Shown here piece by piece: positions 7,534-18,131 of a stretch of 39,650 nt of DNA; positions within the stretch are counted from its first letter, which is position 1, and every line of letters starts with the position of its first letter. The position numbers were made by a program, and so were the translations under genes. Source of the DNA: a virus (taxonomy: Duplodnaviria > Caudoviricetes); IMG/VR virus record IMGVR_UViG_3300012910_000001, positions 1-39,650 of that record. One strand, written 5' to 3'. The notes beneath the pieces are model-generated. The model was not told where the DNA came from and searched no databases. It worked only from the letters and a program-made list of their open reading frames with translations.

Positions 7534-7971
7534 ATGCCAGCACCTAAAGGACATGCTCCATATAATGTAAATGGAGAAGGTGGAAGACCACTTAAATATA
7601 CTAAAGAAATCATAGAGAAATATGCAGATGAATTTGAAAAATGGCTCGAAGACGATGAAAATTTTTGGTTTAAAGATTTTGCTATTAAAAACAAATTCAA
7701 TCCTGAACTATTCCATGTTTGGGCAAAAGAAAATGAAAGGTTTTCTAAAGTTTTAAAAACTGCTAGATTAAAACAAGAATCAAAGTTATTTAAATCTGCA
7801 TTAGTTAATTCATTTAATGCAGGAATTGTTAAATTTGCATTAAACGTTCATCATGGATGGGTTGAGAAGAAAGAGACAGTGCACACAAACAATCCAGACA
7901 ATCCAGTTCCGGAATGGATTATGAAATCAGAAGGCACATCAAAAGACCTAGTGAATGATGACAAAGAATGA
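7534..7971 (+). CDS. terS: Terminase small subunit
   Basis: MPAPKG...GGRPLKY N-terminus; immediately upstream of terL. Confidence 0.8.
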   Translation: MPAPKGHAPYNVNGEGGRPLKYTKEIIEKYADEFEKWLEDDENFWFKDFAIKNKFNPELFHVWAKENERFSKVLKTARLKQESKLFKSALVNSFNAGIVKFALNVHHGWVEKKETVHTNNPDNPVPEWIMKSEGTSKDLVNDDKE

Positions 7972-9436
7972 AAATCCTCTTTCTGATCCATATTGGAGAA
8001 TAAATAATCTTTATCAGATCGTAAATAAGAGTGGTCGCAAGATCACTTTTAATCTTAATTGGGCACAAGAGGAGTTGTATCGCAATATGTGGTATTGCAA
8101 TGTAATTCTTAAGGCTAGGCAACTTGGAATAAGTACTTTTGTCTGTATGCTTTTTCTTGATAGATGTTTGTTTAATCCCAATCAATCAGCTGGAATTATT
8201 GCACATACTCTTGAAGATGCTCAGCAGATGTTTCGGCGTGTTAAAGTAGCATATGATAGTCTTCCTAACGAAATTAAATCTGTAATATCGGCTGATAATG
8301 ATACATCGCAAATGCTTAAATTCTCCAATGGATCAAGTCTTAGGGTCGGAACTTCATTACGTTCAAGTACCTTTCAATATCTTCACATATCTGAGTTCGG
8401 TAAAATATGTGCAAAGTTCCCAGACAAAGCCCAGGAAATTGTTACCGGATCACTTAACACAGTCGAATCCGGCCAATATATCTTTATCGAATCTACTGCT
8501 GAAGGTAGGTCTGGTTACTTCTATGACATTTGCAAGCATGCGGAAAATCAGAAGAAATCCAAGGTTGAGCTTAGTAAATTGGACTTTAGATTTAACTTTT
8601 TCCCTTGGTGGAAAGAACCTTCATACCGCATTGGAAATTCATTTCCTATTAACCAAGAAATGCAAACGTATTTTGCTCACTTGAAATCTTTAGGCATTGA
8701 AATAGATCAAGAACAACAAGCTTGGTACATAGCTAAAGAAGTGATGCAGAAAGAGGATATGCGAAGAGAGTATCCTTCTACTCCTGAAGAAAGCTGGGAA
8801 GTTTCTAATGAGGGATTGTATTATGGAAAATACATGACATTAGTTAGGGCAGAAAAACGTATTGGATTTGTTCCTTATGATGAACAATTACCCGTTCATA
8901 CAGCTTGGGATCTTGGTTATAACGATTCAAATGCAATTTGGTATTTCCAGATTCATAAAAAAGAAATAAGACTTATCGATTACGATGAAGGAAGCGGAGA
9001 ATCTCTTTCCCATTGGCTTGGTGTTCTTAAATCAAAACCGTATGTGTATGGGAAACATATCGCTCCTCACGACATCATGGTTCATGAGTATAGTTCGGGA
9101 ATGACGAGACAAGCAGCAGCTCGTAAAATGGGATTCAATTTCTTGCCTGCTCAAAAGGTAGAAATAATCCCTGGAATTGATGCGGTTAGAAATATGTTAA
9201 ATCGATGCTGGTTTGATGAAAAGAAGTGCGCTAAAGGATTGAAGGCAATAGATAACTACAAGAAAGATTGGGACGATAGAAACGTTTGTTGGAGATCTAA
9301 ACCATTGCACAATTGGTCAAGTCATGGAGCAGATGCCCTACGCACTCTTGCTACTGGATTGAATTATGTAGAGGAAAAAAATTCAGTCACTAGTCATAAT
9401 CCTATGCAATACATACAAAATAGGTTCGCTGGATGA
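7955..9436 (+). CDS. terL: Terminase large subunit
   Basis: ILKARQLGIST (Walker A), LHISE (Walker B), IESTA coupling motif, WDLG and SHGADA nuclease motifs. Confidence 0.95.
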   Translation: MMTKNENPLSDPYWRINNLYQIVNKSGRKITFNLNWAQEELYRNMWYCNVILKARQLGISTFVCMLFLDRCLFNPNQSAGIIAHTLEDAQQMFRRVKVAYDSLPNEIKSVISADNDTSQMLKFSNGSSLRVGTSLRSSTFQYLHISEFGKICAKFPDKAQEIVTGSLNTVESGQYIFIESTAEGRSGYFYDICKHAENQKKSKVELSKLDFRFNFFPWWKEPSYRIGNSFPINQEMQTYFAHLKSLGIEIDQEQQAWYIAKEVMQKEDMRREYPSTPEESWEVSNEGLYYGKYMTLVRAEKRIGFVPYDEQLPVHTAWDLGYNDSNAIWYFQIHKKEIRLIDYDEGSGESLSHWLGVLKSKPYVYGKHIAPHDIMVHEYSSGMTRQAAARKMGFNFLPAQKVEIIPGIDAVRNMLNRCWFDEKKCAKGLKAIDNYKKDWDDRNVCWRSKPLHNWSSHGADALRTLATGLNYVEEKNSVTSHNPMQYIQNRFAG

Positions 9437-10026
9437 ACTGCAACTTTTGCAATCAAGTAATTATAAATCCTACTAAGAGAAAATTGTATGATTTTAAAAG
9501 AAGAGGGAAAATATATTGCTCTTCAGAATGTGTAAAAATAAAAAAATCACTTTCTTCTAGAGAAAGAATGATAAAAATGAATAAAGAATATGCGAGTGAT
9601 AGAATGAAGAAAAACAACCCTTCATTTAATAAAGAAATAATTAAAAAAGGAATACTCACAAAGATAAAAAAAGGTTCTTTTCATAAAACTCCCATTATTC
9701 AAGGGGGTAATGGTAAAAAAACACCAATTCCCGTTCAGATGCTTAACGATCGTTTAAATTGGACCTTAAGATATATTTTTCGAACTGGCGTGCATGGTTT
9801 TTATCCTACGCATTATAAACTAGAAATAGCTAATCAAGAGAAACAGATATGCATAGAGATAGATGGAAATAGCTCATATTCTCGAAAAGATGAAGCGAAG
9901 AAAAAAGAAGAATATTTAGAGTCAAAAGGATGGATTACCTTGAGATTCAAAAATAAAGATATTTTGAAAAATCTTGAATCTTGCGTTCAGACTTGTTTAA
10001 AAATATATGAAGAAAGAAGAATGTAA
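9433..10026 (+). CDS. Free-standing endonuclease-like protein (basic DNA-binding N-terminus plus DUF559/Vsr-like domain), possibly inactive
   Basis: CxxC...YCS..C, RMKKNNP, and ICIEIDG...YLESKGW..LRF motifs. Confidence 0.65.
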   Translation: MNCNFCNQVIINPTKRKLYDFKRRGKIYCSSECVKIKKSLSSRERMIKMNKEYASDRMKKNNPSFNKEIIKKGILTKIKKGSFHKTPIIQGGNGKKTPIPVQMLNDRLNWTLRYIFRTGVHGFYPTHYKLEIANQEKQICIEIDGNSSYSRKDEAKKKEEYLESKGWITLRFKNKDILKNLESCVQTCLKIYEERRM

Positions 10027-11341: not shown

Positions 11342-13462
11342 ATTTCTTATAATATTGCGCCTTTTAATAATAACATAGAGCCTAGCCAAGGAAATGTTAA
11401 GCAATGGCTAGATAGTCTTTACACTAGATATCAGCCCCTCGAGCAAAGCCGCTGGAATCAGGCCAACATAGACACATTATTCTATGCTGGCGAGCAATCC
11501 TTTGTTAATCGGTATTTTAATTTTAATAATACCTCTTCATTCAATAAATATTATTTCAACTTAGTGCAACAGCCCATAAATATGGTGACTGGGTACGAAA
11601 GACAACATCGTAAAAACTTTAGCTATATTCCTACTGAGGGAGCAGATGCCCTTACTACCGATCAATATAATAAGTTAATCACTCATGTTGCCAATGCTGG
11701 ATCTATACATGAACAGAAATCAAAAGCTAAAGAATTAGCCGCTATATCTGGAATGGTACTAGCTCAGCCTTATCTTGATTATACTGGAGATGATCAAGCG
11801 CAAGGGGAATTAAAGGTTAAGATTTGGGAATATAATAGTTTCTTAGTTGATCCTTATTTTAGATCTCCCGATATGTCAGACGCTCAATTTGTGTGGTGTC
11901 AGGAATATATAAGCAAGCAAGAGGCAGAAGCAAGATTTCCAGGTAAGACTAATATGATTAGTCCAATGTCAGGTAGCCCTCAAAGATACGGGTCGTTTTA
12001 CTTTTTGCCAGAAAATTACAACATGGCTCGAAACGATCTGATGGTCTTATCCTATGTATGGTATAAATGGCGTAGAAAGAAAAAACGTTTATATAGCCGA
12101 AAACGTAATCAATTCTTTGATTATGCCGGGGGTGATGGGCAACTTGAGGCAATCCTTTACAACATTCCAGATATGCAACCTGTAACTGTTGAAACTCCAT
12201 GCTGGAAGCTTGCCACCGTTTTAAATGATCAATTGATGTTTCAAGGAGAAAATCCACTTGGGTTTGATTCTTGTCCTTTCATTCCATACTTTTGGAATTA
12301 TGATCCTCATATTAATTATTATGATCTTAGAGTTAGATCGCTAGTATACCCCATGAGATCTCCTCAGTTCTTAGCTAATCATAAGATAATCAATAATAAT
12401 GACATTGCAGCAGCTACCATTAATGCTGGATGGAAACGTAAGATTGGTGCAGTAGCTAATGAAGACAATCTCAAGAAATCAGGTCAAGGTTGGGATGTAA
12501 TCATTAATGAAGGATATGAACTAACAGACTGTGAGAAAATCATTCCAAGTGCTGTGCCTGAAAGTGATTTAGCATTAGCCCAACAAATGATAGATCTTAT
12601 TTACAATACTTCAGGTATTAATTTAGAGAATTGGTCCGGACAAGATGATAAACAAATAAGTAGCCTTACAATGCTTATGAAGCAAGCTGCTAATCTAATG
12701 GTATTTCAAAAATACTTTGATCAGTGGGACTTTTCAGATAGATTATTAGGAGATAAACTTCTTCAAATCCCTCTTAACAATTGGAATGCTGAAAAAGTTG
12801 GCCTTTATATAGGAGAAGAGCCATCCCCTTATTTCTACTCTAAAGTATTTTCTAAGTATCAAGTCTTAGTAGAAGAATCAGATTTAACACCCACTCAGCA
12901 AAACTTACAAGCTCAGCAGATGTTTGAGGTTAATGAAAGATTTGGCCGCGAAGTGTTCACACCATCTCAAATTGTTCCGAAGCTTAACATTTCTGGAAAA
13001 GCTGAGATTATTCAAATCATGCAGCAACAAGAACAACAACAAGCAGCTATGCAAAATGAGATGCAGAATACACAACATGCGTTTGAGCATGCTAAGATGC
13101 AAGAGTTGATGAGTAAAGCTGCTGCGAACATAGCCAGAGCACGTGAAGATCATAGCCGTTCTGAAAGTAACCTGGGACTCTACGAAGAGAGATTGTCGAT
13201 GATCGAGCGTAATAGGGCTCTTACTCTTAAAGAGAAACAAGCAGCTTTAAGAGAACTTTTAGAAAGCATGCAATTGTTTGGAAAAATGGAAACGGAATAT
13301 GCAGAAAATAAACTAAATATCGATGCCTATAATATTCGATCAGAGGAAGAATTAGAAAAACAAGATGTTCATAGGCGAACTGAAGCTAATAAATTCCTAG
13401 AGCAAATAATGGGATCTGTAGGTATGAATAATCCTTCCCAACAACAAGAACAAATGGTATAA
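11342..13462 (+). CDS. Portal protein (podovirus/P22-like), probable ATT start
   Basis: Large gene between terL and the scaffold/capsid genes, with a Q-rich coiled-coil C-terminus. The frame is open from 11315 and GGAGG lies 5 nt before ATT 11342. The ORF track starts it late, at 11564. Confidence 0.8.
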   Translation: MSYNIAPFNNNIEPSQGNVKQWLDSLYTRYQPLEQSRWNQANIDTLFYAGEQSFVNRYFNFNNTSSFNKYYFNLVQQPINMVTGYERQHRKNFSYIPTEGADALTTDQYNKLITHVANAGSIHEQKSKAKELAAISGMVLAQPYLDYTGDDQAQGELKVKIWEYNSFLVDPYFRSPDMSDAQFVWCQEYISKQEAEARFPGKTNMISPMSGSPQRYGSFYFLPENYNMARNDLMVLSYVWYKWRRKKKRLYSRKRNQFFDYAGGDGQLEAILYNIPDMQPVTVETPCWKLATVLNDQLMFQGENPLGFDSCPFIPYFWNYDPHINYYDLRVRSLVYPMRSPQFLANHKIINNNDIAAATINAGWKRKIGAVANEDNLKKSGQGWDVIINEGYELTDCEKIIPSAVPESDLALAQQMIDLIYNTSGINLENWSGQDDKQISSLTMLMKQAANLMVFQKYFDQWDFSDRLLGDKLLQIPLNNWNAEKVGLYIGEEPSPYFYSKVFSKYQVLVEESDLTPTQQNLQAQQMFEVNERFGREVFTPSQIVPKLNISGKAEIIQIMQQQEQQQAAMQNEMQNTQHAFEHAKMQELMSKAAANIARAREDHSRSESNLGLYEERLSMIERNRALTLKEKQAALRELLESMQLFGKMETEYAENKLNIDAYNIRSEEELEKQDVHRRTEANKFLEQIMGSVGMNNPSQQQEQMV

Positions 13463-15643: not shown

Positions 15644-15849
15644 AGCCGCTTTACAGGATAATATTGTGTCAGAAATTTATTGACACAATATTATTTCAGA
15701 TAGATATTTAAATTACGCAAGCATAAGCGTTATATGCATTCGCGTTAGAGGAATTCGCATACCTCGACAGACATAAAAGAGAACGGACGTAGTTACGCAT
15801 CGTCCACGGATCATATGTCAAAATCACATCTGACACTTTAGGTACAGAT

Positions 15850-18131
15850 ATGAGTATAACTACTACGTCTAACCTCGGTCCTATGATTTTGCAATCACTA
15901 GCTCCGGCGATGTTATACGTTCCTACGCCCACAATGAATTATATTACTATCTGCGACAAAGTTTCTATGCCAGCAAATGGCGGAACTACTTGCAGATTTA
16001 TGCGCCCACGTGCGTTAACACCACCTACTGTCCAATTGGGCAATTCCGGAATTGATCCTCCGGCCCAAGTGCCTCAGAGGGATATTATAGACGCGCAAAT
16101 GGCGTTTTTCGGTGAATTGGCTCTTGCAGCCTAACCAGTGCCGAAACTATTGATGATCCTGGGTTACCTGTTCATAAGGGATTACCCAGTAGACTGGATG
16201 TATCATCAATGAGCAGGTTTTTGAAGAATGGCCTGCTATAAATCTGCTCTAATTGACTTGGAACCCCTCATTACCTGAGGGCAACAAGGGGCAAGTGTTT
16301 AATTGTTATTAAAAGTATGGTTTCTACAGTGAAGTTTTTTAAGTTGATCCATCAAACTCAATCGTTGATCAATAATTTCTTGCGATATGCGTTGTACACC
16401 TTGTTTTCCTGGCTGATACTCGGAACAAAAATATGTACTTCTCATTTTCAAAAGAATCATTGCTTGTTCCTTCTTGATAACAAGATAAGGAATCATGAGT
16501 TCACAAAGATGGGTCAAGCAATCACCTGTGCATTTCCAACTATAGACTGGACCTTTACAATTTATAGCGCGTTGTTTAGGCGTATATTCGCTTTTCCAAC
16601 CGCCAAAATTAGTATAAAGCCAATCTGTGAGGCATTTATCAGTTGTAGTAATACCTATAATGGTTTGAAAAAAACCTGTTCCTCGGATTTTATCTTTATT
16701 ACCATAATTTCCGATAAACAGAGTTCCTTCGCCATCAATAATGCCAGCAAGATATGCAATTTGGCCCACTGTGTAATCAACTCGTGTATATTTACTTTTC
16801 GACATAAAAACTCCTATGTTTAATGTCAGTGTAATTCTACATGATTAACAATTAAATGTACAGCCTGAACGACTAAGGCGAGTGGACACAGTAATGTGAA
16901 GCGATAGTCTGATCTGCAACTATATACGAAATTGCAGAGACATACAGAAATGATATGTCCTCACAATAACATGTGGAGTAACAAAAGTGTATACTTCAGG
17001 ATCAAGAAGGTGTTTTAGCTTGGGTATCTGAACGCTTGGCTGCTTAAGCTACGGCCAAGAGTCTTGACGATGAAATGGTAGCAATGCGTCAAGCCGAGGA
17101 TTGAGATTAAGTCCTCGATAAACTGAACCTGATTGACTTGGAAGGCTAAGGTTTATATAAACTATGCCGACAAGGGGCAAGATGATGAAAATAGAGTTTA
17201 CTAATTTTAACTGTGTAGAATGTGGTGAAGAAAGCCCGTTCGCAGTTATGAAAGTTCCATTTAAATGCAAATGCAAATGCGGATTTGCAACATTGGATAA
17301 AAAACTGTTTAAGGGAAGTGAATACCCCGATAGTTTGAAGAAATTCTATGATAAGTTTAATCAGCCTGAGAGACTGAGTGGTTTAGAGTCAGAAATGACT
17401 ATGCGACAGTCCGAACCAGACAACGAAAGGTCTGGAGTTTAGTAGAAATGCTAAACCGCCAATAATTGACCGAAAAATAGACCGCGGTCATTTAATGGTC
17501 ATAAAGTAACAGAGTGTTAATTCTCAGAGACTACATTGTATCTGCTGCTTCGCAAATTAATGCTGGTGGTGGGTCAAATGGCTTTAATCCAACAAACTTA
17601 GGTTTGACGGACTTTAGCCTTGTAGCAACGACTCTTGATACTAACAATGCCTATAAGTTCATGTCAGGTATTGAAGGTATGGATCGTTTTGGTACAGGCC
17701 CTATAAGAAGCGCATATTTCATGCTAAGCTCAACAGAGCTTCAGTCTGATTTTGATGCTTTAGTTGGTCAAGGTGTATTAAACAACTGGAACTATCCGTC
17801 CAATGCGTCAGCATTGCCATCGGAATGGGGCTCAGTTTATAATTTACGTATTTTAACAAGCTCTGAGGCTCCAGTAGCACGTAATGCTGCTATTAATAAC
17901 CTTGGTCAGTTGAATGACGTTTATTACAACACCGTTTTAGGAAAGCAAGCGATTACGCATATCAAGCAAGATGGTTATTCCATGAACTTGATTTATCGTG
18001 ATCCTTACTATTCAGGCATGTTAGCTCAAAATGCGACTTTAGCGGTTAAATTCGCTCAAGCACAAGCGCTGACACAAGATACGGCTATCCGTAATCTTTT
18101 ATCAACACGCTTAAGCAACTTGGGGGTATAA
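15850..18131 (+). CDS. Major capsid protein (N4-gp56-like), 5 exons: 15850-16113, 16193-16218, 16990-17041, 17078-17101, 17517-18131; 326 aa after splicing
   Basis: Joined exons total 981 nt and give one frame: ...AQMAFFG|TGCIINEQV|ILQDQEGVLAWVSERLA|VAMRQAED|LILRDYIV...EWGSVYNLRIL...DPY...ATLAVK. Every junction has exon-U/intron-G ends and an internal guide sequence. Confidence 0.88.
16114..16192 (+). other. Core-less mini-intron 1 (79 nt)
   Basis: IGS CCAGT-G-CCGAAA (16135-16146) is complementary to the ligated junction TTTCGGT|ACTGG. Ends in G; contains an in-frame TAA and breaks the frame. Confidence 0.8.
16219..16989 (+). mobile_element. Group I intron A (771 nt) carrying an antisense LAGLIDADG gene
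   Basis: P1 AGCAGGT/GCCTGCT with U.G; P3 TCTGCTC(16243)/GAGTGGA(16880); P7 GACTA(16871)/TAGTC(16905); terminal G16989; P10 TGAAG/CTTCA. Confidence 0.9.
16299..16805 (-). CDS. Single-motif LAGLIDADG homing endonuclease
   Basis: IAYLAGIIDGEG motif and the typical PYLVIKKEQA C-terminal motif; own AGGAG RBS. Confidence 0.9.
   Translation of the reverse strand: MSKSKYTRVDYTVGQIAYLAGIIDGEGTLFIGNYGNKDKIRGTGFFQTIIGITTTDKCLTDWLYTNFGGWKSEYTPKQRAINCKGPVYSWKCTGDCLTHLCELMIPYLVIKKEQAMILLKMRSTYFCSEYQPGKQGVQRISQEIIDQRLSLMDQLKKLHCRNHTFNNN
17042..17077 (+). other. Core-less mini-intron 2 (36 nt)
   Basis: IGS GCTAC-G-GCCAAG (17048-17059) is complementary to the ligated junction CTTGGCT|GTAGC. Ends in G; in-frame TAA at 17045. 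Confidence 0.8.
17102..17516 (+). mobile_element. Group I intron B (415 nt)
   Basis: P1 CGAGGAT/GTCCTCG; P3 CTGAACC(17123)/GGTTTAG(17380); P7 GACTG(17372)/CAGTC(17407). Shares ATTGACTTGGAA, ACAAGGGGCAAG, CAGCCTGA and GTAACA..AGTG with intron A; terminal G17516. Confidence 0.9.
17182..17442 (+). CDS. Small intron-encoded Cys-rich ORF (zinc-ribbon-like)
   Basis: CVECG...CKCKCG; AAGGGG lies just upstream; the frame runs on into the intron core. Confidence 0.4.
   Translation: MMKIEFTNFNCVECGEESPFAVMKVPFKCKCKCGFATLDKKLFKGSEYPDSLKKFYDKFNQPERLSGLESEMTMRQSEPDNERSGV

Follow-up and report, generated by a model that had tools for sequence, protein, structure and literature searches.

Group I introns are regarded as self-contained, each with one core and one pair of splice sites. 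The locus described here raises the question of how an insert can leave a coding sequence when it has splice signals of the group I type and no catalytic core. The DNA analysed (the window, 39,650 nt in all) is a phage-like region whose sequence is covered by contigs of four DNA runs, which also show alleles of relatives. Its capsid gene, at 15850-18131, has five exons and four inserts of 79, 771, 36 and 415 nt, located at sites 264, 290, 342 and 366 of the coding sequence (CDS), each following a U and ending in G. A free-standing DUF559 nuclease-like gene (9433-10026) lies between the terminase and portal genes, and a non-coding stretch upstream of the capsid start (15650-15830), with an inverted repeat near 15650-15695, is a possible structured leader.

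7955-9436: terminase large subunit
11564-13462: P22-type portal
15850..16113, + strand: exon 1 of the major capsid gene, 88 codons, ending in U
16193..16218, + strand: micro-exon 2, 26 nt, with P10 strand 16193-16197, tether target 16202-16210 and host P1 strand 16212-16218
16990..17041, + strand: exon 3, 52 nt
17078..17101, + strand: micro-exon 4, 24 nt, with P10 strand 17078-17082, tether target 17087-17093 and host P1 strand 17095-17101
17517..18131, + strand: exon 5, 204 codons and stop, phrog_1357 major head protein

The five exons joined give a 326-aa ORF, and any single insert that is kept truncates it, with in-frame stops soon after each junction. The window gene matches phrog_1357, and its relatives carry the source label 'N4-gp56 family major capsid protein'. 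Both micro-exon peptides are present, uninterrupted, in intronless homologues. Two of the inserts have a recognizable group I core and two do not.

16114..16192, + strand: satellite intron A, coreless, 79 nt, CDS site 264, 0 bits to the core model; P10 strand 16135-16139, P1 guide 16140-16146, extra hairpin at about 16159-16189, terminal G at 16192
16219..16989, + strand: full group I intron B, CDS site 290, partner of A, 106 bits to its own core model; guide 16231-16237, ATAAA 16238-16242, P3 16243-16249/16880-16886, P7 16871-16876/16904-16909
16299..16805, - strand: endonuclease-like ORF of 168 aa, antisense in intron B (phrog_5046, E 2.9e-21)
17042..17077, + strand: satellite intron C, coreless, 36 nt, CDS site 342, 0 bits to the core model; P10 strand 17048-17052, P1 guide 17053-17059, terminal G at 17077
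17102..17516, + strand: full group I intron D, CDS site 366, partner of C, 79 bits; guide 17111-17117, ATAAA 17118-17122, P3 17123-17129/17380-17386, P7 17370-17376/17407-17412

Introns B and D have the P3 and P7 pairings, the U|...G ends and P1, their helices being assigned by hand from the known structure of group I introns, and they look like ordinary members of the group I introns of phage protein genes. In the parts of the literature available, such introns are described with a U-G pair at the 5' splice site, a terminal G and P1/P10 guides (PMC3984707, PMC7886860, PMC11878797). An Rfam search returned no group I family for the introns of the window, either at the gathering score or at E values up to 10. 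The antisense ORF of intron B has no Pfam match, and the sense strand across it (16317-16823, +) is likewise open for 168 codons. Intron D holds a cysteine-rich 92-aa ORF (17164-17442), for which no family match above the cut-off was found.

Inserts A and C, which we call satellites, keep only the U|...G ends, P1 and P10, and each precedes a full group I intron. In both of them the exon-end U is paired with a G in P1, a terminal G is present and P10 forms with the 3' exon; the catalytic core P3-P9, with its G site in P7, is missing. Lacking this core, they fall outside the group I introns, yet from their sequences they look like group I substrates. Across the satellites of related genes, the guide G and the terminal G are 22-38 nt apart (53 in window A), which leaves no room for a core, and a search for a P7-like pair or motif in satellites, down to 29 nt, found none. 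These observations bear on the possibility that such mini-introns splice themselves with the help of exon pairing, as was claimed for small inserts (63-75 nt) in Phialophora rDNA with P1, P7, P10 and a pairing between the intron middle and the 3' exon (available portion of PMC3160393). This explanation has hardly any chance of being right, since satellites shrink to 29 nt and have no P7-like pair, and self-splicing would account neither for the obligate downstream intron nor for the aiming at its P1 that are reported below.

The preliminary description of this DNA had proposed a second helix, the tether, that links each satellite to the micro-exon behind it.

16149..16157, + strand: 5' strand of tether A, pairing with 16202-16210
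17063..17069, + strand: 5' strand of tether C, CTTGACG, pairing with CGTCAAG at 17087-17093

Both pairings are exact Watson-Crick helices at these coordinates, and both begin just after the guide as described, 2 nt past 16140-16146 in A and 3 nt past 17053-17059 in C. Tether A can be extended by one U-G pair to 10 bp. A match this long anywhere in the exon arises in 0.2% (A) and 0.7% (C) of 5000 shuffled satellite tails, and the predicted pair probability is higher in tether A (0.999) than in C (0.77). With z scores of -2.97 and -2.96, the local folds place satellite P1, tether and partner P1 next to each other; for site C, the model fold is the centroid, and the minimum-energy fold differs. 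Tether and P10 cross, and thus form a pseudoknot. Almost every micro-exon base had been said to be engaged in pairing, and the actual share is about 80%, with 21 of 26 and 19 of 24 bases in P10, tether or P1.

Another pairing was considered in satellite A, where 16166-16175, within the extra hairpin, is complementary to 16209-16218, the exon strand of the partner P1, and could act as a switch for the order of splicing. It is disfavoured: the match has a chance of 0.002 in shuffles, but its ensemble probability is 0.0 and the fold is 6.6 kcal/mol worse. It is confined to satellite A of the window, relatives being without it, and a scan for long-tailed relatives gave two matches, both outside capsid genes and read as chance.

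To place the window among its relatives, 423 loci were gathered by protein scans and satellite pattern scans (the latter covering 120 of about 190 in the metagenome set), of which 308 had a capsid match and 115 without one were dropped. Together with the window, 309 loci were mapped with a spliced aligner, giving 210 distinct genes. In the first 80 loci, ends other than U|...G were penalized but allowed, and the aligner never picked them; later runs imposed the U for split codons. Satellites come mostly from the pattern scans and so are not a random sample; the scan for site 342 returned mostly chance matches, and ten genome-bin matches bear many different labels. Among 386 mapped insertions, 129 lie at sites 264, 275, 312 and 342, and all of these score 0 bits against a core model built from 85 compact introns. 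The few other low-scoring inserts are cut off, mis-mapped or of a different core type. Group I cores of a second type are present in this gene at sites 296 and 270 (L068, L243, L047, L080), and at site 296 they also follow satellites.

Among distinct satellite-partner pairs, P1 has at least 6 bp in all 96 and P10 at least 4 bp in 94, and a terminal G is found in 129 of 129 satellites, a count to be read with the aligner's preference for G in mind. GTAAC/T stands within the last 14 nt of 208 of 220 full introns as against 8 of 129 satellites. The reading frame that enters an unspliced insert often ends in Ala-Ala-stop, as at 16114-16134 and 17036-17047 of the window; with the related loci included, this ending is in frame for 100 satellites (of 125) and for 94 full introns (of 208), and occurs 0-2 times in the other frames. 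It resembles the ssrA degradation tag, and in many satellites its codons overlap the guide or the tether.

Satellites are accompanied by full introns. Complete genes from the protein-based scans have a satellite in 26 of 108 cases, with a downstream intron for 27 of 27 satellites, and over all sets each of the 96 satellites in genes whose alignment reaches the C-terminus has the next intron within 170 nt. Satellite-free genes have any intron at CDS 265-434 in 11 of 82 cases. For the 21 satellites with no mapped partner, the alignments stop at a known partner site. A strict need of the partner intron for a satellite is ruled out, as introns at 360 (4 of 16), 366 (2 of 35) and 432 (10 of 12) occur with none directly upstream. 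The preliminary description had also tied an identical ATAAA linker, with no P2, to the tether. In B and D the linker indeed stands directly before P3 with no P2, but it is a trait of the whole family, with or without a satellite, and is ruled out as a mark of partner introns: leaving out sites 207, 243, 296, 308, 369, 429, 435 and 489, the linker is at most 7 nt in 78 of 80 resolved partners (83 examined) and in 103 of 103 resolved non-partners (114 examined), and the guide G is 12 nt from P3 in 181 of 183 resolved full introns. An apparent P2-like helix that encloses an ORF is seen in four partner introns at site 296, an assignment made with no control.

The tether was then measured in relatives. 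The next insertion was available for 108 satellites; six were dropped for a low-scoring or mis-mapped one, and the remaining 102 reduce to 96 distinct pairs in 14 site combinations. A tether was taken as anchored when the helix started within 9 nt of the guide and ended 6-12 nt before the partner splice site; energies, summed from stacking values, are approximate. Over the 96 distinct pairs the anchored tether averages -13.7 kcal/mol, compared with -3.8 kcal/mol for shuffled tails; 90 reach -8 kcal/mol or lower, 83 have P<0.05 and 89 are in the top 5% of coding-sequence positions. Against the exon of another partner site the same tails give -3.9 to -6.7 kcal/mol, and exon swaps among satellites at 264 with partners at 290 (264-to-290) are worse in 370 of 372 comparisons. 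When no anchor is imposed, the best helix lies at the tether place in 50 of 64 exons of at least 38 nt (8.9 expected), another helix scoring best in the other 14. The weaker cases are found at site 264. Tethers of the 264-to-360 combination have 5-6 bp, with P<0.05 in one of five and a swap test that is worse in 4, the same in 10 and better in 6, i.e. no covariation; 3 of 15 264-to-303 tethers miss P<0.05, and in three 264-to-296 cases 14 nt separate the end of the tether from the splice site. Satellites at this site can have a second helix to exon +6..+9, found in 15 of 15 with a partner at 303, 5 of 5 with 360, 2 of 2 with 432 and 1 of 2 with 366, and rare elsewhere (1 of 14 at site 275, 0 of 27 at site 312).

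The geometry of the tether could be defined from these pairs. In 86 of 91, the base that faces exon -8 lies at position 1-3 of the satellite tail, and the partner's 5' splice site is followed across exons of 21-168 nt. Judged from these alignments, the constant of the tether is adjacency to the partner P1, not exon +10. A target that starts at +10 and ends 1 nt before the host P1, initially described as the common geometry, holds for both window micro-exons but fails as an invariant: +10 applies to short exons only, and exons of 38-168 nt keep the target 7-12 nt before the partner splice site.

The covariation across homologous loci that had been suggested as a check was examined in 24 aligned relatives of tether A. 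Eight tether pairs are 100% paired, and three of them have changed on both sides (G-C 20/A-U 4; G-C 23/U-A 1; G-C 16/U-A 7/A-U 1). The combined score of tether plus P10 was reached by 0 of 500 shuffles, and slid registers are 15-59% paired. Kinship of the sequences can inflate such counts; in tree-aware tests on independent pairs, 4 of 4 agree at each of two positions, which is too few for P<0.05. These compensatory changes, together with the re-aiming of the tether to its current partner, support the earlier claim that the architecture reflects selection rather than decay.

Decay of the gene, or bypass of the inserts by ribosomes as happens to an insert in T4 gene 60, might explain why stops follow each junction so closely. 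We give this next to no credence. Take-off and landing codons mismatch at both sites, 14 coreless inserts at site 312 are 325-987 nt long, the covarying P1, P10 and tether indicate selection on RNA pairing, and a satellite is present in as many as 26 of the 108 complete genes mentioned above.

The strongest sign of selection on the tether is its re-aiming. Satellites at site 312 differ in their tethers, of which there are three, according to whether the partner is at 350, 360 or 366, and the same bases before 366 are targeted by satellites at four sites. In L162 and L192 the tether spans 168 nt to site 432, with a compensatory change. In two further loci, L240 and L262, it passes over one full intron and abuts the next, at 303:

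L240:2344-2601, and L262: full intron at site 282, between the satellite and its addressed partner at 303

These two loci rule out the rule that a satellite addresses the nearest intron, and they constitute a natural test of partner choice.

The tether begins 1-3 nt past the base of the satellite P1, and its target extends to the base of the partner P1, so that both substrate helices emanate from one junction. We propose that the tether hinges the satellite P1 at the base of the partner P1 and that the partner ribozyme quite probably splices out both introns. Docking of the satellite P1 on the partner core is the best reading of the comparative evidence, which supports it. This junction would bring together the bases of the two P1 helices (guide +1 to +3 on the satellite side) and the tether, with the 5-nt (A)UAAA linker connecting it to P3, so that both P1 helices would be at nearly equal distance from the core and either could swing into the single active site. 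Guanosine would then cut at the satellite U-G pair, and the satellite terminal G, typically 4-9 nt past the tether, would enter the G site while P10 aligns the exons for ligation. In this division of labour the satellite would provide the U-G pair, P10 and terminal G, and the partner the G site and catalysis. In long exons, the 3' splice site would be kept close by the second helix of site-264 satellites to exon +6..+9. The favoured order is removal of the satellite first, in cis. As the junction needs only the exon, the partner guide and the core, it would also work with an excised partner that is still paired to the ligated exons, in a reaction like trans excision-splicing.

Some points speak against sharing of the core. 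The proposal gives no account of what keeps the partner from splicing first; GTAAC/T is mostly missing in satellites, so that the route of their terminal G to the core is a presumed one; and the three 264-to-296 tethers named above end 14 nt off, with partners that seem to have a P2-like helix.

Placing both P1 helices within reach of one core would also suit a satellite P1 that is a mere alternative 5' splice site of the full intron, used for exon skipping or regulation, the satellite itself not being removed alone. Exon skipping by phage group I introns is named in the title of a paper on Twort. In the capsid gene, however, a message that skips micro-exon 2 is out of frame (101 aa), and one that skips micro-exon 4 lacks 8 conserved residues; satellites also keep their own terminal G, with the aligner preference noted above, and a covarying P10. 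We thus regard this alternative as very unlikely.

It is unlikely, in our opinion, that any free group I intron RNA can remove satellites in trans while the tether does another job, e.g. timing the partner P1 or closing a loop around the 3' splice site. In exons of 24-26 nt a single helix lies against the partner P1 and at the same time closes the 3' splice site loop, and the separate exon +6..+9 helix of all 264-to-303 and 264-to-360 satellites would fit such a job. However, all 96 satellites in complete genes have a downstream intron although many genes have upstream introns, and the tether tracks the P1 base of one partner in a register of 1-3 nt over 21-168 nt.

Coreless inserts are not always small. 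Among the satellites at site 312, 13 of the 14 that are 325-987 nt long hold ORFs of 288-296 aa in the P1 loop, and 4 of 4 tested ORFs pass the Pfam LAGLIDADG_1 cut-off.

L027:2284-3233, L040:2263-3234, L348:2037-3023 and L359:3015-3971: coreless site-312 inserts of 946-987 nt with double-motif LAGLIDADG ORFs in the P1 loop

These long forms share their guide, tether and terminal G with the site-312 forms of 30-56 nt, which indicates that a homing endonuclease can travel with splice signals alone.

Searches of the open-licence literature turned up neither a natural group I intron that lacks its core and is spliced by a neighbour nor a tether of this kind. Homing endonuclease ORFs and several introns per capsid gene are described in phages (PMC3984707), crAss-like phages (PMC7886860) and Bastillevirinae (PMC11878797); the available parts of these papers describe no such element, and satellites differ from those introns in having no P3-P9 core and a helix to the exon at the P1 base of another intron. 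In vitro, a group I core can excise a coreless segment ending in G and join the flanking exons (available parts of PMC2532722 and PMC4094466). Such trans excision-splicing ribozymes and spliceozymes were made in the laboratory and bring the guide themselves, whereas satellites are natural, contain their own P1/P10 guide and add an exon-mediated tether. The small 'degenerate' PaSSU introns of Phialophora, in fungal SSU rDNA, are 56-81 nt long and have P1, P10 and a pairing between intron and 3' exon; unlike satellites, they are said to keep P7 and to self-splice, they reside in rRNA, and the available portion of the paper mentions no partner intron or aiming at a neighbouring P1 (PMC3160393). 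Euglenoid group III introns are reduced group II introns without the core domains, and organellar twintrons or tandem introns join several intron modules (available parts of PMC8393795 and PMC6140425). The chemistry of group III differs from that of satellites, and in these sources the modules of group I twintrons are whole introns, nested or side by side, each with a core and with no exon between; here one module is coreless and a conserved coding exon stands before the core. This study adds a family-wide examination of the putative tether, which covers its covariation, register and re-aiming, the case in which it passes over an intron, its division into two helices and the forms that carry an endonuclease.

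Satellites probably represent a natural class of non-autonomous group I introns, made of splice-site guides plus an address helix that picks one neighbouring ribozyme, some of them mobile with LAGLIDADG, and with the address rewritten for each partner. The comparative data point to one core serving two introns of one mRNA, the second as small as 29-36 nt, through a re-aimable address helix of 5-12 bp. Annotation is affected, as 26 of 108 related complete capsid genes have such an insert and Rfam misses all introns of the window. The arrangement suggests how small removable inserts and programmable ribozyme substrates might be designed, and how homing endonuclease genes may reside in an essential gene without a ribozyme of their own. 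If the proposal is true, satellites with LAGLIDADG ORFs would be mobile parasites of the catalysis of another intron. The family would also be a natural system, open to simple tests, in which introns leave catalysis to a shared RNA, and would parallel, among group I introns, the separation of splice signals from a common catalyst through which the spliceosome arose.
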